In this document: positions 15,001 through 37,612 of the stretch, piece after piece
Position numbering within the stretch: position 1 is the stretch's first letter
How the letters are laid out: each line of letters starts with the position of its first letter
Assembly (NCBI GenBank): GCA_905612315.1
Contig: CAJQSL010000020.1
Span: forward strand, 2,341 to 66,340
DNA length: 64,000 bases
From: an uncultured Francisellaceae bacterium
Lineage (GTDB): Bacteria; Pseudomonadota; Gammaproteobacteria; Francisellales; CACEW01
Reading direction: 5' to 3'
Position numbers and translations under genes: made by a program
Notes under the pieces: model-generated
What the model was told of the DNA's origin: nothing
Seen by the model: the letters and a program-made list of their open reading frames with translations, nothing else
The model's database searches: none

Positions 15001-16242
15001 AGAGATGAAAGATCCGTACAGATTAAAACAGACCAAATAGAAAGATACAAAAATAATTTGGATGATGAGCTTAATATTTATAAAAATGTGTTACTTGGCA
15101 AGTTATCTAAGGGGCTTTGTTCTTGTAAAATTGCCAAGAAAGTAGGTAACTATGATAAAGGTGAGCCTATTACTGTTGAGCTTTTAGAAAAATTAGCTGT
15201 TAAGTATATGTTAGATTTAACAGTTAGTGATAAAAAAGTAATGGATGAGTTAAAAACATTACAGCTTCAGCTCAAAGATTATGAGCAGGATTGTCAAAAC
15301 AGATACCAGTATTATCATGACAAAATGATGAAAGGCGATGATTTATCACCTGGAGTAATTAAGATTGTTAAAGTATCTGTTGCGGTTAAGCGTAGGTTGC
15401 AACCGGGTGACAAGATGGCGGGACGACATGGTAATAAAGGTGTTATCTCTAGAGTTATGCCTGTTGAGGATATGCCTTATATGGCAGATGGAACCACTGC
15501 AGATGTTGTTCTTAATCCATTGGGCGTGCCTTCTCGTATGAATGTGGGGCAGATTTTAGAAACTCATTTAGGGTGGGCTGCTAAAGGTTTAGGTGCGAAA
15601 GTTTCTCAAATGTTAGATGCTTCTGTAAAATCTGCAGATTTAAGATCAATGCTCGATGCTATTTATAATAAGCATATGGATAAAAAAGTTGATTTTGCAG
15701 CATATTCAGATAAAGAGGTCGCATCTTTTGCTGAAGGTATTCGTGACGGTGTTCCAATTGCGACTCCAGTTTTTGATGGGGCTCGTGAGTCTCAAATTAA
15801 AGAGTTATTGAAGTTAGCTGATTTGTCAGAGTCTGGTCAAGTGACTTTGTACGATGGTCGTACAGGAGAAGTGTTTCAAAGACCAGTTACCGTGGGTTAT
15901 ATGTACATGTTGAAATTGAACCACCTTGTTGATGATAAAATGCATGCTAGATCAACTGGCTCTTATAGTTTAGTTACGCAGCAGCCATTGGGAGGTAAGG
16001 CCCAATTTGGTGGACAGCGTTTTGGTGAGATGGAAGTCTGGGCTCTAGAGGCATATGGTGCCGCATATACATTGCAAGAGGTTCTTACCGTGAAGTCGGA
16101 TGATATTCAAGGTAGAACACGCATGTATAAGAATATTGTTGATGGTGATTTTCGTATGGAGGCTAATATTCCAGAATCCTTTAAAGTATTGATGAAAGAA
16201 ATTCAGGCTTTGGGTATTAATATTGAACTTGAAAATGACTAA
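12088..16242 (+). CDS. rpoB: DNA-directed RNA polymerase beta subunit
   Basis: 1384 aa. Contains [30 protein letters not shown] (rifampicin region) and the conserved C-terminus. Confidence 0.99.
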
Positions 16243-16309: not shown

Positions 16310-19300
16310 TTGAAAGACTTATTACAGGTTATTAGACGCACTGCTAAACATGGTTTTGATCGAATTAAAATTGGGCTTGCAAGTCCAGACTTAATTCGTA
16401 GCTGGTCTCATGGTGAAGTTAGGAAGCCTGAGACAGTAAACTATCGTACATTAAGGCCAGAGCGTGATGGTTTATTTTGTGCTAAAACTTTTGGACCTAT
16501 TAAAGATTTCGAATGCTTGTGTGGAAAATATAAACGCCTTAAGCACAGGGGCGTTATTTGTGAAAAATGTGGAGTAGAGGTTACTGAAACGAAAGTTAGA
16601 CGTACAAGAATGGGGCATATCGATCTTGCTTCTCCGGTTGCGCATATTTGGTTTTTAAAGTCTTTACCTTCTCGTATTGGTTTAATGTTGAATATGACTT
16701 TGCGTGATATTGAGAGGGTGCTTTATTTTGAATCTTATGTGGTTACAGATCCCGGTATGACGCCTTTGAGTCGTGGCCAGCTTTTTAGGGAAGAAGACTA
16801 CCTGGATGCCCTAGAGCAATATGGAGATGATTTTGAAGCCCAAATGGGTGCTGAAGCCATTAAGAAATTATTGGAGTCGGTTGAGTTGCAGTCTGAGATT
16901 GATAACATTCGCGAAGAGCTGCCAGTTACGACATCTGAAGCCAAATCTAAAAAATTATCTAAAAGGTTAAAATTATTAGAGTCTTTTAAAGATTCTGGCA
17001 ATAAACCAGGGTGGATGATTATTACAGTGTTGCCTGTATTACCACCTGATTTAAGACCGTTAGTTCCATTAGATGGCGGAAGGTTTGCAACTAGTGATTT
17101 AAATGATTTATACAGAAGAGTTATTAACAGAAATAATAGGCTTAAAAGATTACTTGAGTTAAATGCTCCTGATATTATCGTAAGAAATGAAAAACGAATG
17201 TTGCAAGAAGCAGTAGATGCTTTACTAGATAATGGTAGACGCGGAAGAGTTGTAACTGGCACAAATAAGCGTCCATTGAAATCTCTTGCCGATATGATTA
17301 AAGGTAAACAAGGGCGTTTTCGTCAGAATTTATTAGGTAAGCGAGTAGATTATTCTGGTAGGTCGGTAATTACAGTTGGCCCATCTTTGAAATTACACCA
17401 GTGTGGCTTGCCCAAGAAAATGGCATTAGAATTATTTAAGCCATTTATTTTTAGTAAGCTTGAGTTTGCAGGACATGCAACCACTATTAAGGCTGCCAAG
17501 AAGATGGTTGAGCGTGAAGAGTTAGTTGTATGGGATATTTTAGATGAAGTGATTCGTGAGCATCCTGTCTTATTAAACCGTGCGCCAACTTTGCACCGAC
17601 TTGGTATTCAGGCATTTGAGCCTGTTTTAATTGAGGGTAAAGCTATTCAGTTGCATCCTTTGGTTTGTGTGGCTTATAACGCTGACTTTGATGGAGACCA
17701 AATGGCGGTACACGTACCATTGACTATTGAGGCCCAGCTAGAAGCAAGGGCTTTAATGATGTCAACAAATAATATTTTACATCCAGCAAATGGTGAGCCG
17801 GTTATTTGTCCAACGCAGGATATAGTCCTTGGTCTATATTATATGTCACGAGAGCGTCTAGGAGAAAAGGGTGAAGGCAGCTATTTTGCAGATGTTAATG
17901 AGGTTGATAGAGCTTATTTGCAGGGTGTGGTTTCTTTACAAACCAAGATTAAAGTTAGGATTACAGAAAAGATTTATGATGCTTCAGGTAATTTACATGA
18001 AAAAACTGATTTAGTTGATACAACTATTGGTAGGGCCTTATTATCTAGAATTTTGCCAGAAGGAATGCCTTTTAGTCTTATAAATAAAGTTATGACTAAA
18101 AAAGTTTTAGCGCAAGTTATTGATTATTGTTATCGCCAGTTGGGTATCAAAGCCACTTGTATTTTTGCAGATCAACTTATGTATACGGGTTTTGAGTACT
18201 CTACACAATCTGGCATTTCAATTGGTATTAATGACTTGATTATTCCTGATGCTAAAAAAGGTATTATAGCTAAAGCTGAGTCTGAGATAACAGAAATTGC
18301 AGAGCAGTTTGCATCTGGTTTAGTAACAGAGGGTGAACGTTATAATAAAGCGATTGATATTTGGTCTCGAGCTAATGATCAAATTTCACAAGCGATGATG
18401 AAGGCAATTTCAGAAGAAGAAGTTGAACTACCAGATGGTAAAAAAGTTAAGCAAGAGTCATTTAATGCTGTTCACATGATGGCAGATTCTGGTGCTAGGG
18501 GTTCAGCAGCACAAATAAGACAGTTAGCTGGTATGCGTGGTTTGATGGCAAAGCCAGATGGTAGTATTATTGAGACCCCTATTATTGCTAATTTCCGTGA
18601 AGGCTTAAATGTACTTCAGTATTTTATTTCAACGCATGGTGCGCGTAAAGGTCTCGCTGATACAGCTCTTAAAACTGCTAACTCAGGTTACTTGACTAGA
18701 AGATTAGTCGATGTTTCGCAAGATATGGTAATTATCGAAGAAGATTGTGGTACGTCAGAATGCTTGCAAGTTCGTTCTGTTATTGAAGGCGGCGATGTAG
18801 TAGTTACTCTTAAAGAACGTATTTTAGGTAGGGTATTGGCTAAAGATGTACTTAGGCCAAATACCAGAGGTGAAGTCATTGCGCCAGCTGGGACCTTACT
18901 GGATGAGACTTGGGTTGAAACTTTAGATCAAGAAAGTATCGATGAAGTTTTTGTGCGATCAGCTATTACTTGTGATACAAAGCGTGGAGTTTGTTCTAAG
19001 TGTTATGGTCGAGATTTGGCTAGAGGACATCTAGTAAACCGAGGTGAGGCGGTTGGTGTTATTGCTGCACAGTCAATTGGTGAGCCTGGTACGCAGTTAA
19101 CCATGAGAACGTTCCATATTGGTGGTGCTGCATCGAGGGCAACAACTGAGAATAATGTTTCTGTTAAAACAAAAGGTGTTATTAAATTAGATAACATGAA
19201 AACTGTTTTAAACAGCAAGAAGAAGTTAGTGGTGGTTTCTAGATCCGCTGAGATGGCAGTTTCTGATGAGTTTGGTCGTGAAAGAGAGCGTTATAAAGTT

Positions 19301-20602
19301 CCTTATGGGGCAGAGCTTCCAGTTTCAGATGGAGCTGAAGTTAATCCAGGGGATATAGTTGCTAATTGGGATCCGCATACCCAGCCAATTATTACTGAAG
19401 TAAGTGGTAGGGTTAAATATATAGACTTAGTTGAGGGTGTAAGTATACATGTTCAAACTGATGAACTAACTGGTTTGAGTAGTAAAGTAGTTACGCATGT
19501 TGCGCAAACTCGTAAGAAAAAGGATGCACTTAAGCCTATGATTAAGCTTGTCGATGACAAAGGTAAGGATGTTTATTTCTCAAACAGTAAGGTTCCAGCA
19601 GCTTACTTTTTGCCAGCAAATGCTATTATAGCTATTGATGATGGTCAAAAAGTATCAGTTGGTGATTTTATTGCTAGAGTTCCTCTTGAAGGATCAAAGA
19701 CAAAAGATATTACAGGTGGCTTGCCTAGGGTTGCTGATTTATTCGAAGCTCGTAAGCCTAAAGAGCATGCGATTATGGCTGAAATTTCAGGCATGGTTAG
19801 CTTTGGTAAAGAGACTAAGGGTAAACGACGTTTAGTATTAACACCCACTGATGGCGAAGCTGTTGAGACCATGATTCCTAAATGGCGTCATATAAACGTA
19901 TTTGAAGGTGAGCAAGTTCAACAGGGTGATATTGTCTCCGATGGTCCGATGAACCCGCATGATATTTTGAGACTAAAAAGTGTTAGCGCATTAGCTAATT
20001 ATTTAGTTAATGAGATTCAAGAGGTTTATAGACTTCAAGGTGTTAGAATTAATGATAAACATATTGAAGTTATTATTCGTCAGATGATTCGTAAGATTGA
20101 AGTTCAAAATCCTGGAGACAGCGAAGTATTAATCAAAGGTGAAATGGTGGAAAGAGCTCAGTTTTTTGGTGAAGTAGCGCGTTTAAAAGCTGAGAAGAAA
20201 GTTGAGCCTTTGGGTATTCCAATTCTATTAGGTATAACAAAAGCATCATTGTCTACTGACTCATTTATTTCAGCTGCATCTTTCCAAGAAACTACTCGAG
20301 TATTAACTGAGGCAGCGGTATCTGGTAAGACTGATGGTATGTTTGGTTTGAAAGAAAATGTTACAGTTGGTAGATTAATACCAGCAGGAACAGGCTTAGC
20401 TTACCATGATCTTCGTAAGGGTAGTGAAGCAAGTGCGGCCGCTGAATCTATGGGGCCAACAGCAGCAGAAGTTGAAAGCGCACTAAGTGAGGCTTTGAGT
20501 AAGCAGATGGGTGATGAGCCTGAGGTTGCTGAAGAGGCTTCAAAAGATGAGCCCGTGAAAGTTGAGCCCTCTTCCGATGATAATAAAGCTAAAGAAGACT
20601 AA
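16310..20602 (+). CDS. rpoC: DNA-directed RNA polymerase beta-prime subunit (acidic C-terminal tail)
   Basis: 1430 aa. TTG start preceded by AGGAG. Contains the catalytic motif NADFDGDQM. Confidence 0.99.
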
Positions 20603-20648: not shown

Positions 20649-20690
20649 AAAGCCGATATTTTTTATGAGATATCGGCTTTTCTATTCTTC
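20649..20690 (+). terminator. Rho-independent terminator after rpoC
   Basis: Stem AAAGCCGATA (20649-20658) / TATCGGCTTT (20671-20680), followed by a T-rich tail. Confidence 0.6.
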
Positions 20691-21801: not shown

Positions 21802-22644
21802 TTGGCAAACTCAAATCAAGTTAGTTCCGGGCATAAATCAAATACAAACTTTTTCACATTAACAGACTTGTTTAGTGCTCTTATCAGAAGGAAGTTTTTG
21901 TTCCTATGTGTTTTTGTGGTTTTTCTTGTGCTTTCTTTTGTGATAATAATTTTGTCTCCTAGACGTGCCATTTATTTTGCTGTATATACACCAACTAAGG
22001 TATTAGGTCTCGATAGTAAAACGTATCCTATGGCAAGTTTTTTGCAAACTAAAATGAATGCTTTTGTACCTAGAGATAGCAAGTCGGGTGTTTTAAGAAT
22101 AGAGAAGACAGCCATTAACTATAATGTGAATAATAATAATCTAATACTAGAAATTACTGACAGGCAAGATAATAAAGCTAAGGTTAGTAAACTTGTAAAT
22201 GAGGTTGTTTTTAGCTATTTCAATCAATATGAAAAAGAAAAAATTGCTGATATAATTCGTGAGTCAAAGTTTGGAATTATGCAATTAGAGCATCAGTCTA
22301 AAGAAATTAAAGACATTGAAGATGGGTATTTGTCAAGACCGGAAAAAGAAGAGGTTATTATGTTAAAGGGTAGTGACTCGTTATATATGCGAGATCTGGC
22401 TATTCAAGATAAACTTATAGTAAAATTGAATGAAAGTCTTGCTAAAATATCTGACTTAAAAAATGTTATATCCCAAAAGCCCATTGCTTCTAGTTTAGTT
22501 ATAAAGTCTTTTGTAAGTAGGTTTCATTTGTTCTTAAAATTAATTGTTGGTTTTTTGCTAAGCTTTTCACTGGCATTTTTTGTGGTTATATGTCTTGATA
22601 GGTTCTTCGCAGATCCAACACTAAGCAGATCCAACACTAAATGA
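21802..22644 (+). CDS. Wzz-like polysaccharide co-polymerase / chain-length determinant (by topology)
   Basis: 280 aa. TTG start after GGGAGAGG. One TM near each end and a charged, coiled-coil-like periplasmic middle. The call rests on topology and context only. Confidence 0.45.
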   Translation: MANSNQVSSGHKSNTNFFTLTDLFSALIRRKFLFLCVFVVFLVLSFVIIILSPRRAIYFAVYTPTKVLGLDSKTYPMASFLQTKMNAFVPRDSKSGVLRIEKTAINYNVNNNNLILEITDRQDNKAKVSKLVNEVVFSYFNQYEKEKIADIIRESKFGIMQLEHQSKEIKDIEDGYLSRPEKEEVIMLKGSDSLYMRDLAIQDKLIVKLNESLAKISDLKNVISQKPIASSLVIKSFVSRFHLFLKLIVGFLLSFSLAFFVVICLDRFFADPTLSRSNTK

Positions 22645-22759: not shown

Positions 22760-23941
22760 ATGATTTTAGAAATAGATAATAATAGGTTAAAAAGGGGGAA
22801 GGGTATGGAATATATATTTGCGGATTATTTGATTAAATCTGATAACATAGATGAGGCGTCAATGGCGCTAGTTGTAGGACAGTCTATAGGCAATCCTTAT
22901 AAGCGATCTAATTATGAAACGGCAGAAATATTAAAAAGATACTATGCTACTGTTACTAGCATAGAGCAGAGCGGAGATGCCTATTTAGTAAAAACCAAAT
23001 TTCCTGTTGATTTATTTACTCCTGGCTCCTTTACTCATCTTGTAACGGTGCTTATGGGTGGTCAGATGGACATTGATATTATCAAATCATGTCGCTTGGT
23101 AAGGGTTGATCTTCCTGAGAAGTTTTCACGTTCTTTTCCTGGACCTAAATATGGCATAGAAGGCATTAGGCATCTTATCAAGGCCTATAACCGGCCACTG
23201 ATCGGGGGTATTGTCAAACCCAAGACTGGTCTAAGTTTGAGTGTTCTGTGTGAAATTGTTGAAAAAATGGTTTCAGGAGGAATAGATTTTATTAAAGAAG
23301 ATGAAATTCTTGGTGAAATACAAGGAGCCTGTGTCAAAGAAAGAATTAAGGCTGTGGCAAGTGTTTTAAAGGGTACAAATGTCATATTTGCTCCTGCAAT
23401 TAATGTGCCAATAAATCAGTATCAAGATATTGCTGAAGTACTTAATGCTTATGATAATATTTATGGATATCACTTAAATGTATGGGCTGGACTTGATGCC
23501 TTTCAATATCTATCTGCTCTTGCAAAAAAAGTATCATTCTATCAAAAGTCCGGTGATGGAGTTATTACTAGGGGAAGGTATTCAATATCTTTTGATGTCT
23601 GGTGTAGATTTGCTCGACTTGCTGGTGCAGATATGATTCATGTTGGTATGTTAGGAGGGTATTTGGATGAGCCGCAAGATGTGCTGCAAAGACGAATTGA
23701 TGCATTGCAAAACCCTTTTTATGGCCATAAGGGGACGATTCCTAGTTTTAGTTGTGGGGCCACTCCAGAGCATGTTCCTATGCTTCAAAAAATATTTGGA
23801 AATGATATTATGATTTCAGCTGGAGGATCTATCCATTCTCATAAAGATGGTAGTCTGGCGGGGGTTAGAGAGTTTCGTCAAATGGCTGATGCATGTGCAA
23901 CGACCATGTCTGAAAAAGGGTTAGAGCATGCAGAAGTATAA
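22760..23941 (+). CDS. RuBisCO-like protein (form IV RuBisCO large-subunit homologue)
   Basis: Motifs GGIVKPKTGLS and GGIDFIKEDE. LAGADMIHVGMLGGYLD and SAGGSIHSHKDG align to the RuBisCO active-site segments. An alternative start ATG at 22805 follows AAAGGGGGAAGGG. Confidence 0.85.
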   Translation: MILEIDNNRLKRGKGMEYIFADYLIKSDNIDEASMALVVGQSIGNPYKRSNYETAEILKRYYATVTSIEQSGDAYLVKTKFPVDLFTPGSFTHLVTVLMGGQMDIDIIKSCRLVRVDLPEKFSRSFPGPKYGIEGIRHLIKAYNRPLIGGIVKPKTGLSLSVLCEIVEKMVSGGIDFIKEDEILGEIQGACVKERIKAVASVLKGTNVIFAPAINVPINQYQDIAEVLNAYDNIYGYHLNVWAGLDAFQYLSALAKKVSFYQKSGDGVITRGRYSISFDVWCRFARLAGADMIHVGMLGGYLDEPQDVLQRRIDALQNPFYGHKGTIPSFSCGATPEHVPMLQKIFGNDIMISAGGSIHSHKDGSLAGVREFRQMADACATTMSEKGLEHAEV

Positions 23942-24254
23942 TATTAATAACTATAAGGAAGGATGGTTTATTGGTTGCTTTGAGCCATCTATTTTTAAAA
24001 CTAAAGATTTTGAAGTCGCTCTTAAAGTTCATCGTAAAGGCGAGCATATAGCTAAGCATCGCCATTTATTAGCAGTTGAAATGAACTTATGTATTTCAGG
24101 TGAGATGCATGTTAATGGTTGTGATATAAAAAAAGGCGATATTTTTGTGTTTGATAAAGGGGAAGCATGTGATGTTAATGTGATATCCGATGAGGTTCAA
24201 GTTATATGTGTTAAGTCACCATCAATTCCATCGGATAAAGAAATATGCGAATAG
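23928..24254 (+). CDS. Metal-binding cupin-domain protein
   Basis: 108 aa. Exact cupin motif 1, G-X5-H-X-H-X4-E-X6-G, in KGEHIAKHRHLLAVEMNLCISG. The start overlaps the RLP stop by 14 nt. Confidence 0.7.
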   Translation: MQKYNINNYKEGWFIGCFEPSIFKTKDFEVALKVHRKGEHIAKHRHLLAVEMNLCISGEMHVNGCDIKKGDIFVFDKGEACDVNVISDEVQVICVKSPSIPSDKEICE

Positions 24255-24982
24255 TAGTAATGCCTATGGCTGGATCTGGAAGTCGTTTTAGTAATCTCCA
24301 TCCAGACAAAAAATTAATGCCTATACCTCCTAATAATGATCCTATGTTTATCCATGCTATAAAGAATATTGGATTTGAATTTGATAAGATAGTTTTGTTG
24401 CCACAAAAAGCGAATCAAATAAATTCTGTATTGAATGACTTTAAGGAAATAAAAAAAAAATCAGTAGTTATTGAAACTAACAAGCTTACCAGGGGGCCGC
24501 TTGATACAGTTATGTATGCAAGGCAGTTTTTAGAAGAAAATCCACATGCACAGTTGCTTATTTGTAATTGTGATCAGGTTTTATCCTGGCCGGGTGATTG
24601 GGCACTGGAGTGGTTTCGAGATAGAAATGCTGTGGGAGGCATTCCTACTGTAGAAAGATATAGTGAAAGACACTCTTATGCAAAAATAGACGAAAATTAT
24701 GCATGTAAAATTATTGCGGTAAAAGAAAAGCAGAAGATATCAAATCGAGCCACTATTGGCTTATACTGGTTTCAAACTACATTCGGTTTTTTAAAAGCGG
24801 CAGATACTGTTTTTGATAAAAGAGATACGGCCCCCAATGGAGAGTATTATGTTTCGCATGTCTATAATTATTTGAAAGGACTGATTCTTGAGTATCCTTT
24901 GTGTGAGTTTTGGTCATTAGGAGAGCCGGAAAATTATCTAAATTATATTTCGAAAAATTATATGATAGGAATGGAGGGGTAG
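24245..24982 (+). CDS. Nucleotidyltransferase (sugar/alcohol-phosphate nucleotidylyltransferase fold)
   Basis: 245 aa. N-terminal MRIVVMPMAGSGSRF (the GxGxR signature of NTP-transferases). The start overlaps the cupin stop. Confidence 0.65.
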   Translation: MRIVVMPMAGSGSRFSNLHPDKKLMPIPPNNDPMFIHAIKNIGFEFDKIVLLPQKANQINSVLNDFKEIKKKSVVIETNKLTRGPLDTVMYARQFLEENPHAQLLICNCDQVLSWPGDWALEWFRDRNAVGGIPTVERYSERHSYAKIDENYACKIIAVKEKQKISNRATIGLYWFQTTFGFLKAADTVFDKRDTAPNGEYYVSHVYNYLKGLILEYPLCEFWSLGEPENYLNYISKNYMIGMEG

Positions 24983-27118
24983 TTGATAATGAAGTCTAGT
25001 TTTAAATCAAAGTCTATGCAGTTTTTTTTGCTTTCATTTGTGGTTTTACTGTTTAATGTTGTAATTTATAGCCCATCATTACGCTTTGATGTTACTAATG
25101 AAATGCCTTGGAGGCAAACAGATTCTCAGGCGGAGATTACCGCTTACGCTAAAAATACTACTAGGTTTTACTTGCCAACTGTTAATGCCTCGCTTAAAGA
25201 ATGGGGTCCGGGAGTTATAGAAATTGTTTTTCCTATTTATCAATTTGTTACTGGTAAAATGGTTCCACTTCTAACACCTTTAATAAAAAACAATTTGCAT
25301 TCAGATGTTAAAGGGCCAATTAAGCTTCCTTATGGTATGCATTTTAAAAAATATACTGAAAGTAAGATATTAAAAGGTGATAAAGTTATATATACCCTTA
25401 AGTTTACTCTAGCTCCATCATGGGAATATAAGCTTGCCACTTTGTTTCATAATAATATATCTCAATATTTGCATTTATATTTGGTTTCTAATAAAACCAG
25501 CATGGATAAAAAATGCATTTCATTGGAAGTTAATGGCAATGCTAGCGCAGATACGCCAAGAGAATATTGTTATTCTAATAATGTTATACCTGTTACTTAT
25601 ATTCCTATCTTGCCTGGAGAGAATACTTTTAAGTTTATTTTTAGTAAGAGTATGGCCCCAGGGAATTTAGAGTCGGCAATTAGTTTGTTCCCAACTTCTA
25701 AATACGCAAGTCCCATGTTATTTGTCGGGCGTTTGCTTAATATGTTTGCAGTTGTAGCTATTTCATTAATAATAGCTGTTACGTTTTTCCCTTCGTTAAA
25801 GTATAGATATGCATGTGCCATAGCAATTTCAGCTATACCTGCATTTGGATTTTTTGAAACCTTTATTCATGAAGAAATACAAGCATTTTTATTTGTGTCT
25901 ATTTTTCTTTGGGTTGTTTTTAAAAAGAACTTGAGTCTGAGGTGGTTAGTCTTTGCATCTGTATCTCTTTCAATAGCGGTAGCAATAAGGCCTTACTATA
26001 TTTTGTATAGTTTGATGCTTATTGCATTTATGTTTCGTCAGGATGGTTTTAATATGCTGAAAAAAGCTTCATATTATTTGGCGGGCATATTAATAATAAC
26101 CCCTGCTATATTATGGTATTCCTGGACACAGCACCTTGTTAGGAATGGCGCGGATACTATTGGTATTTTTTCAGGGCGTGTATTTTTGAGTTCTTTGCTT
26201 GATTCTGCGAAGTGGCATGCCTTTTTGGGATTTTTCACGAAGTTCCATTTCGGATTGCCAGTATTCTTTCTTTTTATAATTACAATAGTTGTTTATTTAT
26301 GCTTGCGCTTTAGTAAGAAAATAACATCAAATTTTAATTTTGATGTTTTTCTCGGAGTTGGCTTTATAATTAGTTTAATTTCTCTGCCTTTGATTTTTGA
26401 TTCAGCGTCAATACATAATTATTATTCATTTCCTATTACATCTTATTTTTCAATTGCTTCTATTATATGTTTTTATGAAATATATAAAAATATAGATAAA
26501 AAGCCATACTTGAATAAAAAAAATGAACTATTAAGATTTTCATTTAAAAATATTTTATTTCTTTCTTTTTTCTCTGTGATTATAGTGTCTGGAGTAGCTC
26601 ATACCTATGTTAGATTTTACAAAAATGAGAGAACAGTTTACGACCCGTTGGATTATGTATTATTGGGGGGAGTACCTGGAGAGATATTTTCAAGTAGTGA
26701 TAAAATTGTTTTATTAGGATCAGGTGGGCCGCAAGATTATGGCATGACTAATCGTAATGGAAGAAGAGATGCTGGATTTTATTCTGGATATCACTTCCAA
26801 TCTGTTTCAGAGATTAAAGAGGTGTTAAAAAATGAAAGAAAATATTCAGTAGATACATTAACAACATTTAATAATGATATTCAGCAATTCAAAATTAAAG
26901 ATGAGGATATGAAAAGTTTAACATATTATCTAAACACTTATTATGGACCCATTTCATCATATGCTGGCATTGGTAGTTGTAAGGCAGCTTTGCATAGAAC
27001 TAAAACTTGGGATTTATATACAAAGTTTATATACGAGCTGGCAAAAAATACAAAGGGAAGTGTTGTGTATAAGTATCTAGTAAGCACCCCTTGTTTATTT
27101 ATAAAGTTTCCAAAGTAA
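24983..27118 (+). CDS. Polytopic GT-C-type glycosyltransferase-like membrane protein (copy 1)
   Basis: 711 aa. N-terminal TM, a large hydrophilic insert, about 10 further TMs and a soluble C-terminal domain. Its position next to GT2 + GtrA fits a three-component (GtrABC/ArnCT-like) periplasmic glycosylation system. The real start may be the ATG at 24989. Confidence 0.55.
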   Translation: MIMKSSFKSKSMQFFLLSFVVLLFNVVIYSPSLRFDVTNEMPWRQTDSQAEITAYAKNTTRFYLPTVNASLKEWGPGVIEIVFPIYQFVTGKMVPLLTPLIKNNLHSDVKGPIKLPYGMHFKKYTESKILKGDKVIYTLKFTLAPSWEYKLATLFHNNISQYLHLYLVSNKTSMDKKCISLEVNGNASADTPREYCYSNNVIPVTYIPILPGENTFKFIFSKSMAPGNLESAISLFPTSKYASPMLFVGRLLNMFAVVAISLIIAVTFFPSLKYRYACAIAISAIPAFGFFETFIHEEIQAFLFVSIFLWVVFKKNLSLRWLVFASVSLSIAVAIRPYYILYSLMLIAFMFRQDGFNMLKKASYYLAGILIITPAILWYSWTQHLVRNGADTIGIFSGRVFLSSLLDSAKWHAFLGFFTKFHFGLPVFFLFIITIVVYLCLRFSKKITSNFNFDVFLGVGFIISLISLPLIFDSASIHNYYSFPITSYFSIASIICFYEIYKNIDKKPYLNKKNELLRFSFKNILFLSFFSVIIVSGVAHTYVRFYKNERTVYDPLDYVLLGGVPGEIFSSSDKIVLLGSGGPQDYGMTNRNGRRDAGFYSGYHFQSVSEIKEVLKNERKYSVDTLTTFNNDIQQFKIKDEDMKSLTYYLNTYYGPISSYAGIGSCKAALHRTKTWDLYTKFIYELAKNTKGSVVYKYLVSTPCLFIKFPK

Positions 27119-27142
27119 CAAATTGTTTTTATGGTTTAAATT

Positions 27143-28000
27143 ATGAAAGATATAGGTGTAGATAGTCTGCTTTCTTGTGAAGTTGCCAAAGCCTGTGATG
27201 ACTACTTGTCTTTACTAAATGTTTCTATAGATACTATAAATATTAAAAGTCTTGATAAAGATTCTTTAATAAAGAATTATTCGTTAATTAGCAAAAAAGA
27301 GCTGACTCTTATATCAGTTTTTTATAACGAGCAGTCTAATGTCATGCCTTTTTATTTAGAATGCAGGCGACTAAATAGAATTTTTAATATTAAAAACTTT
27401 ATTTTTGTACAAAATGGATCAACTGATAATACAGAAAAACTATTGGACAAACTAAGTGAGTTGGATTCCCGGGTTAAAATAGTAACTATAGAAAATAATC
27501 AAGGATATGGTTATGGATTTAAACAGGGCCTTGCGGCGAGTAAAACTGACTTAGTATTATTAAATCACTCAGATTGCCAATTCGATGCGTATGCTTATTT
27601 TACTCAGCACTTTCCTTTAGTTATGAGTTTTGATCCAGAGGTTGATTTGCTTATTCCTGTAAGAAGGGGGCGTACATTTTATCCAAAGATTCGTAGCATT
27701 GCCCTTAGGTGTCTAGCTTCTATAATACTCAGGCAGGCTGTTGTAGAATTTAATGGCCAACCAAAAATATTTTTGAAAAGCAAAATTAAAAATCTAGATT
27801 TATTGCCAAATGACTTTTGTTTTGATGCTGCCGTAATTCATCAGCTTTTAAAGCAGTATAAACGTAGGTTCTTTCTTGATTCTGTTGAATTGCCAAGGTT
27901 TGATGGTGTTTCTTCATGGTCCAGGCTGCTGTCAGGTCAAGTTAAGTTAACTTGGAGTTATATTTTTGGCATTTTAAAGCTTAAAAGATGTAGGTTTTAG
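27143..28000 (+). CDS. GT2-family glycosyltransferase, polyprenyl-phosphate sugar synthase-like (copy 1)
   Basis: 285 aa. Contains LTLISVFYNEQSNV ... FVQNGSTDNT ... NQGYGYGFKQGL ... LLNHSDCQFD (GT-A fold with a DxD-like motif). Confidence 0.7.
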   Translation: MKDIGVDSLLSCEVAKACDDYLSLLNVSIDTINIKSLDKDSLIKNYSLISKKELTLISVFYNEQSNVMPFYLECRRLNRIFNIKNFIFVQNGSTDNTEKLLDKLSELDSRVKIVTIENNQGYGYGFKQGLAASKTDLVLLNHSDCQFDAYAYFTQHFPLVMSFDPEVDLLIPVRRGRTFYPKIRSIALRCLASIILRQAVVEFNGQPKIFLKSKIKNLDLLPNDFCFDAAVIHQLLKQYKRRFFLDSVELPRFDGVSSWSRLLSGQVKLTWSYIFGILKLKRCRF

Positions 28001-28017
28001 TTGAGAGTTTTTTTATT

Positions 28018-28479
28018 ATGATAATTATAGCTCATAGAGGTAATATTAATGGTATAAATAGTACCAATCATAATGTGGCTAAAATTTGGGATGCAATTGA
28101 AGATGGATTTTATGTAGAACTAGATCTTTGGTGTATTAAAAACAATTATTATCTAGGGCATGACAAACCTGAGGTACAAATTCAGCTGACAGATTTTGAT
28201 CACCCTCAAGTTTTTTTTCACCTTAAGAATCTTTTTCTACCAAAGTTAAAATTTGCAGATGCTTTTGCTATTAATAATGATGATTATGTGTTTACGCTGC
28301 GTGATAAATTATGGTGCAATTATAAAGTGGGGTATTCGAATGATTCTATCATATGTGCTCCTGAGCTTGTTGGATCTACCGATAATTTGGATGATTTCAT
28401 AAATGGTCATCGGGGAGCGTTTGGTATATGTACAGATTATGGCATGAAAGTAAGAAATATTCTTAGTAGCCTAGTATGA
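28018..28479 (+). CDS. Short glycerophosphodiester phosphodiesterase (GDPD)-like protein (copy 1)
   Basis: 153 aa. Has IAHRGN, VELDLW and LGHDKP, matching the GDPD catalytic HR..E.D..HD pattern. It is much shorter than a full GDPD barrel. Confidence 0.5.
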   Translation: MIIIAHRGNINGINSTNHNVAKIWDAIEDGFYVELDLWCIKNNYYLGHDKPEVQIQLTDFDHPQVFFHLKNLFLPKLKFADAFAINNDDYVFTLRDKLWCNYKVGYSNDSIICAPELVGSTDNLDDFINGHRGAFGICTDYGMKVRNILSSLV

Positions 28480-28874
28480 TATTATATAAGCAATATAAAT
28501 CTATATTTTTTCAGTTATGTCGTTTTGGAATTGTTGGCGTAAGTGCAGTAATTATAAATTTATTAATTGTGATTTTTATTGTAGAGACATTTGATTGGCC
28601 GCCATTATTGGCAAATATTATTGGATTTATTGTTGCTTGTCAGGTTGCTTTCTTGGGTCATAATTTATGGACTTTTAAAATGGATACCGACGCAAGTAAC
28701 TCTTGGTTGAAGTTTGTGATGGTTGCGACTTTTAGTTTGGGTTTAACTCAATTATTGTTTTTTATTTTACTGCAAGTTTTCGCTTTATATTATGTTTTTG
28801 CTTTAATTCTGACTCAAATGCTAGTTCCTATTGTGACATTTTTATTGAGTAAATACTGGGCTTTTAGGCATTGA
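28476..28874 (+). CDS. GtrA-family small membrane protein (lipid-linked sugar translocation) (copy 1)
   Basis: 132 aa with four TMs. N-terminal FQLCRFGIVGVSAVIINLLI and C-terminal KYWAFR are typical of the GtrA family. Overlaps the preceding stop by 4 nt. Confidence 0.75.
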   Translation: MILYKQYKSIFFQLCRFGIVGVSAVIINLLIVIFIVETFDWPPLLANIIGFIVACQVAFLGHNLWTFKMDTDASNSWLKFVMVATFSLGLTQLLFFILLQVFALYYVFALILTQMLVPIVTFLLSKYWAFRH

Positions 28875-28937
28875 TTTAGGTGCTGGATTTTGCCTTGGGT
28901 TAGTGTTATTGTTTAAATCTTATTTTAGTGAGTGTAG

Positions 28938-29255
<318 letters not shown>

Positions 29256-29354: not shown

Positions 29355-31274
29355 GTGGGGGTTATTGTGAATATTATAATGCCAATTAATGGTATTGGTA
29401 GTCGTTTTGTTAATGAGTCATACCTGACCCCTAAGTCACTTATAAAGATTTTGGGAAAGCCGATGATAGTTCGTGTAATTGAGTCTCTTTCCTTAACGCA
29501 AAGTGATTTGATTACTATAATTTATCGCAGTTCATTAGATGAAATGGGTTTTTGCGATTTATTGAAGCATTATTTTGGCGAGTTTAATTTTAATTTCATT
29601 CCCATTTGCCATGATACTAAAGGTGCGGCTGATACTGTTTTGCGGGGAATTGCAAGTTTATCCTTAGGTGCTTTAGATGTTCCACAACTTATTCTCGATT
29701 GTGATACTATTTATCATGGAGACATTATTCATGAGTATAAAAAGTATCAAGATAATAGGATATTTTACTTTCATGATTTAGAAGGTGAACCAATCTATTC
29801 ATATATAGAAGTTGATGAAAATTTTTATGTACGAAATATAGCGGAAAAGAGGAAGATATCACATTATGCTAGTGTGGGTTGCTATGGTTTTAAAAATGGT
29901 TTATTGTTGCGGAAATATTGTGAGAAAGCCATTAGTTCACTAAACAGTGGAAATGAGCGTTACATCTCCGATGTTTATGGGTCAATGCTAAGGGATGGCA
30001 TATCAGTTGGTGCGAGTCAATATGAGAAATTTAGCTGTGTTGGAACACCTCTTCAGTTAAAATATTTTTCATCATTGCCAGATAATAGTGATAGAGTATT
30101 ACGTTTTTGTTTTGATATTGATAATACGCTAGTTACCTATCCTGCGGTTAGAGGAGACTACTCAACTGTACGTCCTATACCTGAAGTAATTTCATTTTTG
30201 AAAATAGTTAAGTCTCTAGGACACTACATAATTCTTTACACCGCTCGCCGAATGAAAACACACAATGGGAATGTTAAAGCTGTTATAGAAGATATAAAGG
30301 AAGTAACTCTTGCAACACTTTCAAAATTCGAGATTCCCTTCGATGAAATTAATTTTGGCAAGCCGTACGCAGATTTTTATATTGATGATTTAGCGATCGA
30401 CCCTAAAAAGTGCCTTGAAAAGCAAACAGGATTTTATGACCTGGATATTATGCCAAGAGACTACCATACATTGAATGTTATCGATGGGTGGTATAAAAAA
30501 TCAGGTAATATTCAAGGTGAATTGTTTTGGTATAATTCAGTTCCCAAACAACTTAGTATATTTTTGCCAGATCATAGGTCAATAAATGACGAAGAGCTAT
30601 TAACGAAAAAAGTTGAGGGGCTATCTTTCACTCACTTATTTATTAACAATGCCCTTAAGTCTGATTACTTGGAGAAGTTGTTAAATGCTCTTGATATAAT
30701 ACATTCATATCCCATTTCTGAAAAACTTGACAACCAAAATCTAATTTATTTGAATTATGCCAAAAAGCTTAAAGAAAGGTTCGATGGCTATTCATATAGT
30801 AGATTTGAAAGGAGTCAAGAGGTCTATGATTTCTTGTTATCATCATTAGTTTCCTATTCTGATCAGAATTTGGGGGTTTTAGGAATAATTCATGGTGATC
30901 CTGTTTTCACCAACTGTTTTCTCACAACCAATGGTAAAATTAAGTTTATTGATCCTCGTGGAGAGTTGGGACATGAAAAGTCAATTTATGGTGATATATT
31001 TTATGATCTGTCAAAAGTATATCAGTCATTGGTTGGTTATGACTTTATAGTGATGGGAAAAGTATTAGATTTTAAAGCTATACAATCTCTAAAGTCTTTT
31101 TTTGAAAATTACGTTGAGGATAGGTGGGGAAGGCATAGGATGTCACACATAAAAATAATTACAGCCGCTAATCTTTTTTCTCTTATTCCTCTTCATAATA
31201 ACGATAAGTGTAAGTTTTATTATGATTTAATAGGTGAGATAAATCTTGATCTATCTAAGGAGGTAATATTTTGA
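29355..31274 (+). CDS. Trifunctional fusion: nucleotidyltransferase - HAD phosphatase - APH/choline-kinase-like kinase
   Basis: 639 aa. N-terminus MPINGIGSRF resembles the 245-aa nucleotidyltransferase. The middle has HAD motifs FCFDIDNTLV, ILYTARR and GKPYADFYIDDLAI. The C-terminus has the kinase Brenner-type motif IIHGDPVFTNCF and FIDPRG. The likely start is the GTG at 29367 or the ATG at 29379. Confidence 0.65.
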   Translation: MGVIVNIIMPINGIGSRFVNESYLTPKSLIKILGKPMIVRVIESLSLTQSDLITIIYRSSLDEMGFCDLLKHYFGEFNFNFIPICHDTKGAADTVLRGIASLSLGALDVPQLILDCDTIYHGDIIHEYKKYQDNRIFYFHDLEGEPIYSYIEVDENFYVRNIAEKRKISHYASVGCYGFKNGLLLRKYCEKAISSLNSGNERYISDVYGSMLRDGISVGASQYEKFSCVGTPLQLKYFSSLPDNSDRVLRFCFDIDNTLVTYPAVRGDYSTVRPIPEVISFLKIVKSLGHYIILYTARRMKTHNGNVKAVIEDIKEVTLATLSKFEIPFDEINFGKPYADFYIDDLAIDPKKCLEKQTGFYDLDIMPRDYHTLNVIDGWYKKSGNIQGELFWYNSVPKQLSIFLPDHRSINDEELLTKKVEGLSFTHLFINNALKSDYLEKLLNALDIIHSYPISEKLDNQNLIYLNYAKKLKERFDGYSYSRFERSQEVYDFLLSSLVSYSDQNLGVLGIIHGDPVFTNCFLTTNGKIKFIDPRGELGHEKSIYGDIFYDLSKVYQSLVGYDFIVMGKVLDFKAIQSLKSFFENYVEDRWGRHRMSHIKIITAANLFSLIPLHNNDKCKFYYDLIGEINLDLSKEVIF

Positions 31275-31348
31275 GTCAAGGACTAGTTTTACATTTGACT
31301 TATTAAGAGTTATGTTGGAAAAATTATATAATAGGAATAGAGGGTTAG

Positions 31349-33484
31349 TTGATAGTGAAGTCTAGTTTTAAATCAAAGTCTATGCAGTTTTTTTTGCTTT
31401 CATTTGTGGTTTTACTGTTTAATGTTGTAATTTATAGCCCATCATTACGCTTTGATGTTACTAATGAAATGCCTTGGAGGCAAACAGATTCTCAGGCGGA
31501 GATTACCGCTTACGCTAAAAATACTACTAGGTTTTACTTGCCAACTGTTAATGCCTCGCTTAAAGAATGGGGTCCGGGAGTTATAGAAATTGTTTTTCCT
31601 ATTTATCAATTTGTTACTGGTAAAATGGTTCCACTTCTAACACCTTTAATAAAAAACAATTTGCATTCAGATGTTAAAGGGCCAATTAAGCTTCCTTATG
31701 GTATGCATTTTAAAAAATATACTGAAAGTAAGATATTAAAAGGTGATAAAGTTATATATACCCTTAAGTTTACTCTAGCTCCATCATGGGAATATAAGCT
31801 TGCCACTTTGTTTCATAATAATATATCTCAATATTTGCATTTATATTTGGTTTCTAATAAAACCAGCATGGATAAAAAATGCATTTCATTGGAAGTTAAT
31901 GGCAATGCTAGCGCAGATACGCCAAGAGAATATTGTTATTCTAATAATGTTATACCTGTTACTTATATTCCTATCTTGCCTGGAGAGAATACTTTTAAGT
32001 TTATTTTTAGTAAGAGTATGGCCCCAGGGAATTTAGAGTCGGCAATTAGTTTGTTCCCAACTTCTAAATACGCAAGTCCCATGTTATTTGTCGGGCGTTT
32101 GCTTAATATGTTTGCAGTTGTAGCTATTTCATTAATAATAGCTGTTACGTTTTTCCCTTCGTTAAAGTATAGATATGCATGTGCCATAGCAATTTCAGCT
32201 ATACCTGCATTTGGATTTTTTGAAACCTTTATTCATGAAGAAATACAAGCATTTTTATTTGTGTCTATTTTTCTTTGGGTTGTTTTTAAAAAGAACTTGA
32301 GTCTGAGGTGGTTAGTCTTTGCATCTGTATCTCTTTCAATAGCGGTAGCAATAAGGCCTTACTATATTTTGTATAGTTTGATGCTTATTGCATTTATGTT
32401 TCGTCAGGATGGTTTTAATATGCTGAAAAAAGCTTCATATTATTTGGCGGGCATATTAATAATAACCCCTGCTATATTATGGTATTCCTGGACACAGCAC
32501 CTTGTTAGGAATGGCGCGGATACTATTGGTATTTTTTCAGGGCGTGTATTTTTGAGTTCTTTGCTTGATTCTGCGAAGTGGCATGCCTTTTTGGGATTTT
32601 TCACGAAGTTCCATTTCGGATTGCCAGTATTCTTTCTTTTTATAATTACAATAGTTGTTTATTTATGCTTGCGCTTTAGTAAGAAAATAACATCAAATTT
32701 TAATTTTGATGTTTTTCTCGGAGTTGGCTTTATAATTAGTTTAATTTCTCTGCCTTTGATTTTTGATTCAGCGTCAATACATAATTATTATTCATTTCCT
32801 ATTACATCTTATTTTTCAATTGCTTCTATTATATGTTTTTATGAAATATATAAAAATATAGATAAAAAGCCATACTTGAATAAAAAAAATGAACTATTAA
32901 GATTTTCATTTAAAAATATTTTATTTCTTTCTTTTTTCTCTGTGATTATAGTGTCTGGAGTAGCTCATACCTATGTTAGATTTTACAAAAATGAGAGAAC
33001 AGTTTACGACCCGTTGGATTATGTATTATTGGGGGGAGTACCTGGAGAGATATTTTCAAGTAGTGATAAAATTGTTTTATTAGGATCAGGTGGGCCGCAA
33101 GATTATGGCATGACTAATCGTAATGGAAGAAGAGATGCTGGATTTTATTCTGGATATCACTTCCAATCTGTTTCAGAGATTAAAGAGGTGTTAAAAAATG
33201 AAAGAAAATATTCAGTAGATACATTAACAACATTTAATAATGATATTCAGCAATTCAAAATTAAAGATGAGGATATGAAAAGTTTAACATATTATCTAAA
33301 CACTTATTATGGACCCATTTCATCATATGCTGGCATTGGTAGTTGTAAGGCAGCTTTGCATAGAACTAAAACTTGGGATTTATATACAAAGTTTATATAC
33401 GAGCTGGCAAAAAATACAAAGGGAAGTGTTGTGTATAAGTATCTAGTAAGCACCCCTTGTTTATTTATAAAGTTTCCAAAGTAA
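31349..33484 (+). CDS. Polytopic GT-C-type glycosyltransferase-like membrane protein (copy 2)
   Basis: Translation identical to 24983..27118 except residue 3 (V instead of M). Confidence 0.55.
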   Translation: MIVKSSFKSKSMQFFLLSFVVLLFNVVIYSPSLRFDVTNEMPWRQTDSQAEITAYAKNTTRFYLPTVNASLKEWGPGVIEIVFPIYQFVTGKMVPLLTPLIKNNLHSDVKGPIKLPYGMHFKKYTESKILKGDKVIYTLKFTLAPSWEYKLATLFHNNISQYLHLYLVSNKTSMDKKCISLEVNGNASADTPREYCYSNNVIPVTYIPILPGENTFKFIFSKSMAPGNLESAISLFPTSKYASPMLFVGRLLNMFAVVAISLIIAVTFFPSLKYRYACAIAISAIPAFGFFETFIHEEIQAFLFVSIFLWVVFKKNLSLRWLVFASVSLSIAVAIRPYYILYSLMLIAFMFRQDGFNMLKKASYYLAGILIITPAILWYSWTQHLVRNGADTIGIFSGRVFLSSLLDSAKWHAFLGFFTKFHFGLPVFFLFIITIVVYLCLRFSKKITSNFNFDVFLGVGFIISLISLPLIFDSASIHNYYSFPITSYFSIASIICFYEIYKNIDKKPYLNKKNELLRFSFKNILFLSFFSVIIVSGVAHTYVRFYKNERTVYDPLDYVLLGGVPGEIFSSSDKIVLLGSGGPQDYGMTNRNGRRDAGFYSGYHFQSVSEIKEVLKNERKYSVDTLTTFNNDIQQFKIKDEDMKSLTYYLNTYYGPISSYAGIGSCKAALHRTKTWDLYTKFIYELAKNTKGSVVYKYLVSTPCLFIKFPK

Positions 33485-33508
33485 CAAATTGTTTTTATGG
33501 TTTAAATT

Positions 33509-34366: not shown

Positions 34367-34383
34367 TTGAGAGTTTTTTTATT

Positions 34384-35240: not shown

Positions 35241-35303
35241 TTTAGGTGCTGGATTTTGCCTTGGGTTAGTGTTATTGTTTAAATCTTATTTTAGTGAGTG
35301 TAG

Positions 35304-36407
<1,104 letters not shown>

Positions 36408-36409
36408 TT

Positions 36410-37597: not shown

Positions 37598-37612
37598 AGT
37601 TAAAAGAGAATT

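Follow-up and report, generated by a model that had tools for sequence, protein, structure and literature searches.

The subject of this report is a Rubisco-like protein (RLP) encoded at positions 22760-23941 (+ strand) of a 64,000-nucleotide stretch of DNA from an uncultured Francisellaceae bacterium (contig CAJQSL010000020.1; in what follows the window denotes this whole stretch), where it heads a run of genes inside a polysaccharide locus. Nucleotide-sugar and glycan genes form the characteristic setting not only of the window RLP but of the entire RLP clade to which it belongs. The explanation that we favor overall, with a probability of roughly 0.68, is that the RLP, a nucleotidyltransferase (NT), a small cupin and a minimal GDPD-fold protein (mini-GDPD) form a cassette that builds a nucleoside diphosphate (NDP) sugar for glycan decoration, the RLP acting as an enolizing isomerase or epimerase. 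An earlier note on this DNA, written from the sequence alone, had proposed a nucleotide-sugar or glycan role for the RLP, and the association of NT genes with the clade as a whole both supports that proposal and broadens it. RLPs of what is probably this clade were known before with no function attached (PMC6389311, PMC1821046); what is new here are the conserved partners that make up the cassette and the glycan context in which it is found.

Clade Placement and Conserved Neighborhood

A scan covering one genome per GTDB species yielded 396 relatives of the RLP, and the best 80 loci, on which our analysis is based, split sharply into 42 family loci (33-71% identity) that carry the family motifs described below and 38 OiaX-like loci (27-30%), the eight of the latter that were tested scoring 390-477 bits against the OiaX model. 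With the OiaX-like RLPs as outgroup the family is monophyletic in a neighbor-joining (NJ) tree, where the window RLP has as its neighbors the proteins of Legionella drozanskii, L. nautarum, L. maceachernii and Tatlockia (∼70% identity), next that of an alpha-proteobacterial metagenome-assembled genome (MAG) and then those of Elusimicrobia, Turneriella and Nonomuraea. Other members come from many Pelagibacteraceae (SAR11), Verrucomicrobia, a Crocinitomicaceae MAG, the candidate phyla radiation (CPR; Saccharibacteria, and Beckwithbacteria in the form of a MAG) and DPANN archaea. Scores of the window RLP against the NCBIfam models are 150 and 114 bits for the MtnW equivalogs (cutoffs 409 and 514), 128 bits for the OiaX equivalog (cutoff 700) and 167 bits for form III (cutoff 497). 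Being so far below the MtnW and OiaX cutoffs, the protein does not fall into a known salvage or catabolic clade, and forms with its relatives a separate group in the tree. Identities as a bona fide carboxylase, as MtnW or as OiaX were considered and dropped in view of these sub-cutoff scores and of the residue losses described below. No small subunit, cbb, prk, deoA or e2b2 genes are present among the annotated open reading frames (ORFs) between 20.9 and 62.5 kb of the window, nor among the clustered neighbors of the 42 cellular loci and of 80 viral ones, and no mtn or oia genes occur in the family neighborhoods that were clustered.

Neighbors were counted by tblastn with the window proteins, within 2.5 kb of the RLP unless stated otherwise. 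An NT homologue lies near the RLP in 39 of the 42 family loci as against none of the 38 OiaX-like loci, and the corresponding counts are 19/42 and 0/38 for the mini-GDPD and 11/42 and 0/38 for the cupin. The NT linkage has a Fisher probability of 1e-19, for loci that are phylogenetically non-independent but derive from many phyla; the 39 linked cellular loci cover Legionella, Azospirillum, Elusimicrobia, Turneriella, Nonomuraea, SAR11, Verrucomicrobia, Bacteroidota, CPR and DPANN, and two of the three that lack an NT lie on short or truncated contigs. All four genes are found together in Azospirillum, Elusimicrobia, Nonomuraea, CPR and others, and a 550-residue protein from a JGI metagenome (P0065) is a natural fusion with the mini-GDPD N-terminal to a family RLP. 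Glycosyltransferases (GTs) adjoin the cassette, GT2 in Nonomuraea and Turneriella, GT61 in SAR11 and in locus L089, and WavE/DUF7796-like proteins, GT17 or GT2 elsewhere, with GT2 homologues beside the module in Nonomuraea, Turneriella, SAR11 and locus L042. For the RLP-NT pair of Legionella and Tatlockia the conserved neighbor is a divergent LicD-family phosphotransferase gene; LicD was considered as a general consumer of the cassette product and dropped, being confined to Legionella. In one Legionella/Tatlockia genome a SidE_PDE-like effector gene follows the pair.

The same association is seen in viruses. A scan of IMG/VR with the family alignment found at least 322 viral contigs that encode an RLP relative, and in the best 80 of these 322 the NT is near the RLP in 77, as compared with 61 for the mini-GDPD and 53 for the cupin; the mini-GDPD count becomes 74 of 80 when clustering spans the whole fetched locus. 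The usual viral gene order is NT>cupin>RLP>mini-GDPD, frequently accompanied by DUF7796/WavE-like proteins, SDR epimerases, sugar O-methyltransferase-like proteins and phosphomannomutase (PMM), and the neighbors are of phage type, including a DnaB-like helicase and phage-only PHROGs. A tblastn search with the RLP gave no match in 50,697 cultured-phage records, the carriers among viruses being uncultivated contigs only, and no match was obtained for the RLP in PHROGs; the NT, cupin and mini-GDPD match PHROGs that carry no functional annotation (34507, 3980 and 24762, the last being the cupin). Whether the module recurs in other genomes was a question raised by the earlier note, and in cells and viruses alike the answer is that it does, with NT genes near the RLP and glycosyltransferases adjoining.

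Jaffe et al. (2019) reported ∼80 'Form IV-like' RLPs on phage scaffolds, together with two from Beckwithbacteria, that lie outside all other RLPs and whose function was left unclear (PMC6389311). Judged from taxon content alone our family is probably this clade, which is highly divergent, lies apart from the classical RLP clades and occurs on Myoviridae-like and large phage scaffolds and in Beckwithbacteria; our family for its part includes a Beckwithbacteria MAG, many SAR11 genomes and the viral contigs with their phage-type neighbors. No conserved gene partners were reported in that work, whereas an NT/cupin/mini-GDPD cassette and a glycan context are found here, and the cellular range is wider, including Legionella, alpha-proteobacteria, Actinobacteria, Spirochaetota and DPANN. 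The family possibly also corresponds to the RuBisCO-homologue (RLP-like) groups of the Global Ocean Sampling (GOS) data, which had no function assigned (PMC1821046).

Active Site of the RLP and Its Partner Enzymes

The RLP gene had been described as a 393-residue ORF, and while its coordinates (ATG at 22760, stop TAA ending at 23941) stand, its start needs a minor correction: the true start is probably the ATG at 22805 (Met16), giving a protein of 378 residues, since homologues of 375-377 residues align from Met16, residues 1-12 have pLDDT values below 50 and a strong Shine-Dalgarno sequence (AGGGGGAAGGG) precedes this ATG. Homology to the RuBisCO large subunit, claimed from the outset, is confirmed by both Pfam domains, RuBisCO_large (PF00016; 8.4e-32, 111 bits, cutoff 30.1) and RuBisCO_large_N (PF02788; 5e-6, above the gathering score), by a best PDB sequence match to the form III Rubisco of Pyrococcus horikoshii (2cwx, 5e-40) and by an AlphaFold2 (AF2) model of form III fold (pLDDT 92.8) that superimposes on 2cwx with a TM-score of 0.89 and a root-mean-square deviation of 1.8 Å and on 2oek and 4nas with TM-scores of 0.82-0.85. 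Solved structures that were deposited as RLPs (4nas, 2oek, 3nwr) are matched at ∼1e-29 to 1e-31, more weakly than form III. No identical record was found in an exact-sequence look-up of the RLP.

Residue equivalences were obtained from HMMER alignments and from an alignment of 57 family sequences. The RLP retains K153, K155, K179, D181, E182 and H294 as the equivalents of Rubisco K175, K177, K201, D203, E204 and H327, the residues that the earlier note had picked out, and in addition S331, G333 and G355/G356 (S379, G381 and G403/G404 of Rubisco), all of which are invariant in the 57 members. The loop-6 lysine K334 is replaced by Y301, the tyrosine noted previously, and further replacements are found at H294 (Q262), R295 (K263), H298 (D266) and G380 (C332), the H294-R295-x-x-H298 segment of Rubisco reading Q-K-S-G-D in the family, as well as at E60 (Q41), T65 (N45), W66 (P46) and N123 (G101). 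These replacements are themselves invariant over the 57 sequences. The family is recognized by the signature motifs GQSIGNP, GGQxDID, IVKPKTG, DFIKEDE, YQKSGD, HxGMxGGY and PSFSCG, with YQKSGD, GGY and SFSCG both family-specific and invariant, and such a pattern argues for a selected, distinct active site and not for decay. Because K334, E60, N123, H294, R295 and H298 are all lost the RLP would not be a carboxylase, and on the basis of its sequence it is best classed as a non-carboxylating homologue of the RuBisCO large subunit, a form IV RLP in the broad sense, in which the metal, carbamate, general-base and C1-phosphate parts used for enolization appear to be intact.

Downstream of the RLP are the cupin (23928-24254, + strand, 108 residues, ATG at 23928) and the NT (24245-24982, + strand, 245 residues), the former overlapping the RLP gene by 14 nt and the latter the cupin gene by 10 nt. 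The NT scores 31.7 bits against Pfam NTP_transferase (PF00483; cutoff 21.2), and the G-x-G-x-R motif (P7, G10, G12, R14) is invariant in its family, in keeping with its original assignment. A profile of the NT family retrieves the uncharacterized V. cholerae protein 4evw (2e-35) and then GDP-mannose pyrophosphorylases, GlmU, RmlA and HddC, while its similarity to IspD is marginal only and LicC is not among the matches; the protein looks like a nucleotidyltransferase of the aldose-1-phosphate superfamily. The cupin had been called metal-binding, and here the motif is present across the family (H44-x-H46-x4-E51-x6-G58 plus an invariant H35) while the single-sequence score against Pfam Cupin_2 (0.0024, 18 bits) stays below the cutoff of 27.2. 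The cupin family alignment has 60% mean column identity, and its profile matches small monocupins, including a 113-residue chain deposited as 'mannose-6-phosphate isomerase'. There is no methylsulfurylase among the PDB chains that this profile retrieved, and the idea that the cupin is the equivalent of that enzyme was dropped for want of specific similarity.

The mini-GDPD (28018-28479, + strand, 153 residues) keeps the catalytic set H6, R7, E34, D36, H48 and D49, plus K70, D88, E116 and D140. A Pfam scan of 14 mini-GDPD sequences returned only noise and no GDPD match; the family profile matches the GDPDs 3i10 (1.6e-5) and 7e0v over the HR...ExD...HD region, and the AF2 model (pLDDT 94.6) has as its best Foldseek matches the GDPDs 1v8e/1vd6 (probability 0.99, TMq 0.56), so that profile and fold agree with the GDPD-like label given to it previously. 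Compared with the ∼240-residue GDPD barrel the strands are present and most of the helices are deleted. The protein occurs in 17 cultured Synechococcus myophage records, in most of which it is annotated as hypothetical. It is also found on a 375-kb contig (GCA_902731535.1) that has the appearance of a MAG from a giant virus or jumbo phage; the large sugar island there has HAD-NT, SIS, GHMP kinase, transaldolase, methyltransferase, Thg1 and SET-domain genes and no RLP.

Cyanomyophage islands (S-SM2, S-CAM9, SynMITS9220M01, Bellamy and others) contain the same mini-GDPD and NT family, together in some cases with the same cupin and with DUF7796-like 'capsular polysaccharide biosynthesis' proteins, but they have no RLP and carry instead RpiB (fused to the NT), SIS isomerases, a class II aldolase/adducin protein, kinases and HAD phosphatases; none of these islands has a product named in its annotation. 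In SynMITS9220M01 a 4evw-like NT of the same family is fused to RpiB (1o1x, 4e-29; record positions 151631-152788) in a gene annotated as 'phosphatase', which is followed by a cupin 43% identical to that of the window, a DUF7796-like protein, the mini-GDPD, a GHMP kinase and another NT. The cupin ORF is only partly annotated in that record. In S-SM2 the mini-GDPD is surrounded by SIS isomerases, a protein annotated as belonging to the class II aldolase/adducin family, a carbohydrate kinase and an NT. The class II aldolase/adducin family includes the AraD epimerase, and on family grounds RpiB and SIS isomerases, and possibly an AraD-type epimerase, act on pentose or heptose phosphates. The position next to the NT, cupin and mini-GDPD that the RLP has in the cassette is held by such enzymes in these islands, and we read the RLP and the RpiB, SIS and AraD types as an apparent case of non-orthologous displacement.

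Transferase Set, Repeat and Surrounding Locus

From the RLP to a GtrA-family gene the window has seven tightly packed, head-to-tail genes on the + strand in an operon-like arrangement. The overlaps that had been reported for the RLP, cupin and NT are exact (23928 vs 23941; 24245 vs 24254) and the next gene abuts the NT stop (24982/24983). No terminator-like sites are found on the + strand between 22760 and 29000, a promoter scan was uninformative (88 sites vs 78 ± 10 expected), and the GC content of the module is that of its surroundings.

The first of the transferase genes (24983-27118, + strand) encodes a 711-residue polytopic membrane protein, a putative GT-C, with ∼10 transmembrane segments and a large first loop of ∼200 residues according to hydropathy. 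It has no Pfam, NCBIfam or PDB match and no word-index homologues, BLASTP against the PMT_2 protein of the Turneriella locus was not significant, and an exhaustive HMMER search established that it is almost an orphan, with 13 relatives (E<=1e-3) in 1.84e9 representative proteins. Distant relatives (E values of 5e-8 to 5e-4 over query residues 246-512) carry Pfam PMT_2, and the GT-C class named in the earlier note is weakly indicated. The GT2 (27143-28000, + strand, 285 residues), a candidate polyprenyl-phosphate glycosyl synthase of the GtrB-like kind, matches Pfam Glycos_transf_2 at 1.5e-14 and gives weak NCBIfam matches to PgaC, PgfS and TuaG, while the small membrane protein that follows the mini-GDPD (28476-28874, + strand, 132 residues, overlapping the mini-GDPD stop by 4 nt) matches GtrA_DPMS_TM at 1.9e-23 and is a putative lipid-linked-sugar flippase; both had been named correctly.

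This set is part of a 4.3-kb direct repeat with an offset of 6366 nt, 100% identical over 24990-29034 and with 9 mismatches near its ends. Copy 1 (24940-29235) has its left edge within the last ∼40 nt of the NT gene and holds the GT-C-like gene, GT2, mini-GDPD, GtrA and the first ∼255 nt of pseB, ending in a truncated 91-residue 5' fragment of that gene (28980-29255), and copy 2 (31306-35601) continues into the intact pseB (35346-36407). Between the copies is a 639-residue trifunctional protein (29355-31274, + strand) that combines a 4evw-like NT, a HAD phosphatase of the EcbF/BcbF type and an APH-like kinase domain (PDB 4evw, 1xpj and 9iqw; APH 0.0089, a weak match) and that by its domains would be a second sugar-activation module, an alternative of the kind seen in the phage islands that have no RLP. 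Separate NT and HAD homologues of this protein lie beside the RLP module in locus L089, where both module types are present. An identical GT-C-like/GT2/mini-GDPD/GtrA set is thus located 3' of both the RLP-cupin-NT block and the 639-residue gene, and since identical transferases cannot discriminate between donors the arrangement implies the same or interchangeable donors, a very recent duplication, or an assembly artefact.

The window begins with a tuf-secE-nusG-rplKAJL-rpoBC block, in which rpoB (12088-16242) and rpoC (16310-20602) were identified by their size, their order and the ORF list only, and continues with a long polysaccharide locus whose start is marked by a terminator-like hairpin 3' of rpoC (20649-20680, + strand; 14-bp stem followed by a T-rich tail). 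Next is a gene for an initiating phosphoglycosyl transferase (Bac_transf, 20890-∼21600) that is frameshifted near 21425, the conserved C-terminal KTGITGWAQV...NWS... carrying on in another frame beyond that point, and that is either a pseudogene or the result of a sequencing error. Directly upstream of the RLP is a Wzz-like chain-length-determinant candidate (21802-22644, + strand; Pfam Wzz 5.5e-4, a weak match below cutoff).

On the other side of the repeat, genes for pseudaminic acid extend over 35346-42205 (+ strand; pseB, pseC, a GNAT, an aldo/keto reductase, a CMP-sugar synthetase-like gene, an aminotransferase and pseG), with pseI, an NCBIfam equivalog, at 48561-49637. The pseudaminic-acid locus recognized in the earlier note is secured by NCBIfam equivalogs, all above cutoff, for PseB (555 bits), PseC (540), PseG (269) and PseI (506), and the pseudaminic-acid glycan is presumably the polymer that is decorated by the cassette sugar. 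Between pseG and pseI a four-gene insert on the - strand (42235-48083) encodes a LuxE-LuxC fusion (acyl-protein synthetase/reductase, 806 residues), an Fe-alcohol dehydrogenase, an AMP-binding enzyme and an aminoglycoside-3-N-acetyltransferase-like protein and may be an unusual N-acyl tailoring route for a nonulosonic acid. Farther downstream, along with additional GTs, the alpha-2,8-polysialyltransferase-like protein at 50883-51941 (2.3e-16) points to a homopolymer or oligomer of nonulosonic acid. Positions 55644-60878 may hold another Arn/Gtr-like set, consisting of a DegT aminotransferase (56221-57327), a GT2 (57407-58378), ORFs of 131 (58375-58770) and 183 residues, and a 516-residue protein (59328-60878) with no family match.

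Proposed Function and Alternatives

The scheme that we propose starts from the RLP as a catalytically competent, non-carboxylating enzyme of the Rubisco superfamily, in which the metal, carbamate and C1-phosphate sites would serve for enolization. Together with the 4evw-like NT, cupin and mini-GDPD it would produce an NDP-sugar from a phosphorylated keto- or aldo-sugar, its own step being an enediol-type isomerization or epimerization of a pentose or pentulose phosphate that has the phosphate next to the reacting carbonyl, that is, the step that RpiB-, SIS- or AraD-type enzymes would take in phage sugar islands with no RLP. The GT2 would then load the NDP-sugar onto undecaprenyl phosphate, GtrA would flip the lipid-linked sugar, and the 711-residue GT-C-like protein would add it as a side-branch on the pseudaminic-acid-containing polysaccharide. 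Our confidence is not the same for all of these elements. That the cassette makes an NDP-sugar is likely; an isomerase or epimerase role for the RLP, and likewise a delivery route via undecaprenyl phosphate, GtrA and GT-C, we regard as somewhat better than an even bet; and a pentose origin of the sugar is a tentative assignment, with odds slightly below even. The 'rearranged sugar-phosphate-derived substituent' that was suggested at the outset has the standing of a hypothesis, and as to the actual chemistry one can speculate about epimerization of ribose 1,5-bisphosphate or ribulose 1,5-bisphosphate, conversion of a ketose-1-phosphate to an aldose-1-phosphate via the invariant C332 and D266, or a 1->2 phosphoryl shift by the mini-GDPD giving an NDP-ketose. 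A literature search of incomplete coverage, which leaves room for prior work, found no publication that connects an RLP with the synthesis of glycans or nucleotide sugars.

Several points weigh against this scheme. The predicted function is deduced from synteny and residue conservation alone, and no step leading to an anomeric phosphate from a C1-phospho-ketose or from a 5-phosphate is obvious in the cassette; such a step would have to come from the RLP, the mini-GDPD or a host mutase. The RpiB 'displacement' is one genome arrangement and no proof of equivalent function. The mini-GDPD is also found beside HAD-NT fusions in loci that have no RLP, so that it partners the NT family and not the RLP specifically, and its candidacy as an RLP-specific partner was dropped for this reason. 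Cupin and mini-GDPD are not next to the RLP in Legionella and in most DPANN loci, and the minimal chemistry may differ between lineages; moreover LicD, the neighbor in Legionella, normally takes CDP-alcohol or CDP-polyol donors and not glycosyl donors. In the window itself the GT-C identity of the 711-residue protein is plausible but weak, and the two identical transferase sets could be an artefact of assembly.

Comparison with characterized systems provides precedents for parts of the scheme. The RLP of R. rubrum is a 5-methylthio-D-ribulose-1-phosphate 1,3-isomerase whose product passes to a cupin, the methylthioxylulose 5-phosphate (MTXu-5-P) methylsulfurylase, in the methylthioadenosine (MTA)-isoprenoid shunt (PMC6302742). 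An RLP that isomerizes a C1-phosphorylated ketopentose by enolization and operates with a small cupin is thus a precedent for the RLP-cupin pair, but the R. rubrum route is one of salvage, ends in 1-deoxyxylulose 5-phosphate (DXP) and involves neither a nucleotidyltransferase nor glycosyltransferases, and the window RLP is not close to any characterized RLP, nor has the window cupin a specific relation to the methylsulfurylase. MtnW/YkrW, the 2,3-diketo-5-methylthiopentyl-1-phosphate (DK-MTP-1-P) enolase, has the same fold and the K175/K201/D203/E204 equivalents and enolizes next to a C1 phosphate, while the window RLP lies far below its equivalog cutoffs, has no mtn neighbors and differs in its loop-5, loop-6 and loop-7 motifs. 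On the side of delivery, the GtrA/GtrB/Gtr(type) and ArnC/ArnE-F/ArnT systems likewise have a GT2, a GtrA-family protein and a large polytopic protein in one operon of an O-antigen or capsule locus, 3' of the donor genes. Here, however, the donor genes are the RLP, cupin, NT and mini-GDPD and not those of known pathways, the 711-residue protein is a near-orphan distantly related to PMT_2-type GT-C proteins, and the whole transferase set is duplicated.

The same RLP-cupin precedent can be taken in another direction, in which the cassette makes a CDP- or NDP-linked phospho-sugar or phospho-polyol through a non-anomeric phosphate (for example NDP-5-pentulose; cf. CDP-ribitol and CDP-6-fructose) that is transferred as a phosphodiester, the RLP turning a ketose-1-phosphate into a ketose-5-phosphate for the NT in the manner of the R. 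rubrum 1,3-isomerase. In four Legionella/Tatlockia genomes and in MAGs related to them a LicD gene is located upstream of RLP-NT in divergent orientation, which would fit, as would the retained C1-phosphate site, expected for a ketose-1-phosphate substrate, the ability of GDPD-fold enzymes to handle phosphodiesters and the fact that the known RLP 1,3-isomerase yields a 5-phospho-ketopentose and works with a cupin (PMC6302742). The NT, however, is closest to aldose-1-phosphate enzymes, is marginal to the IspD-type polyol-phosphate cytidylyltransferases and has no LicC among its profile matches, the consumers outside Legionella are Leloir-type GTs, represented in the window by the GT2/GtrA/GT-C-like set, and the LicD linkage could reflect shared ancestry of close Legionella species, so that we consider a non-anomeric donor unlikely. 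A different question is for whose benefit the cassette evolved. If its ancestral use were in phages, for DNA hypermodification, virion glycosylation or a remodeling of the host surface akin to lysogenic conversion, the window copy would be a captured module whose role may be vestigial. The 322 or more viral contigs, mostly with the full four-gene cassette and with DnaB-like helicase and phage-only PHROGs close by, and the function-unannotated phage PHROGs to which the partners belong are what such an origin would lead one to expect, and modification sets of the gtrABC type are classically phage-borne. Yet the NJ tree places the window RLP with chromosomal Legionella and alpha-proteobacterial genes and not within viral clades, the module does not stand out from the neighboring DNA in GC content, the annotated region (∼20.9-62.5 kb) shows neither an integrase nor phage genes, and the cassette genes are intact and tightly packed inside an O-antigen/capsule locus. 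We give this reading only a slim chance, and it concerns use and not chemistry, which makes it compatible with the NDP-sugar cassette.

A salvage or catabolic role for the RLP (in methionine salvage, in the 5-deoxyribose/MTA shunt, or in apiose and sugar-acid catabolism), with glycan genes beside it by chance, seems very improbable. All characterized RLP functions are of this kind (PMC6389311, PMC6302742) and the pairing with a cupin recalls the MTA-isoprenoid shunt, but MtnW and OiaX scores are 3-5 times below cutoff, the clustered family neighborhoods are free of mtn and oia genes, the cupin profile retrieved no methylsulfurylase among PDB chains, and an NT accompanies the RLP almost universally, in distant phyla as in phages, but in none of the OiaX-like loci. 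There is hardly any room, finally, for an inert Rubisco-fold scaffold or regulator, or for a bona fide form III-like carboxylase. Form III Rubiscos are the nearest solved structures in both sequence and fold and many active-site residues are replaced; K334, E60, N123 and H294, however, are replaced in every family member, which speaks against a carboxylase, and the metal/carbamate triad, K175/K177, H327, the P1 glycine loops and the polar motifs of the clade are invariant at 35-70% identity, which speaks against an inert protein.

Returning to the NDP-sugar cassette, its most far-reaching form would be a four-enzyme pathway built around a Rubisco fold that leads to an undescribed activated sugar, such as a rare pentofuranose or an NDP-ketopentose with its anomeric phosphate derived from a C1-phospho-ketose, and that T4-like phages have disseminated among bacteria, CPR and DPANN for use in surface glycans and, in phages, possibly in host envelopes, virions or DNA; in this full form the proposal is somewhat less likely than not. 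Two functionally unassigned partner families are flagged by the present work, the ∼150-residue mini-GDPD and the 4evw-like NT, and carriers that can be cultured for testing are three type strains of Legionella as well as Azospirillum oleiclasticum and Nonomuraea rosea. Phages of marine and fresh waters, SAR11, DPANN and CPR have the cassette in abundance, and its product may be a widespread, unrecognized surface component that affects phage-host recognition. A testable function is thereby offered for the 'Form IV-like' phage/CPR clade, and probably also for the SAR11/GOS RLPs, the role of which has been open since 2007-2019. If the proposal is true, a nucleotide-sugar/glycan clade would constitute a new functional class in the Rubisco superfamily and the first anabolic, glycan-directed role outside carbon fixation and salvage.

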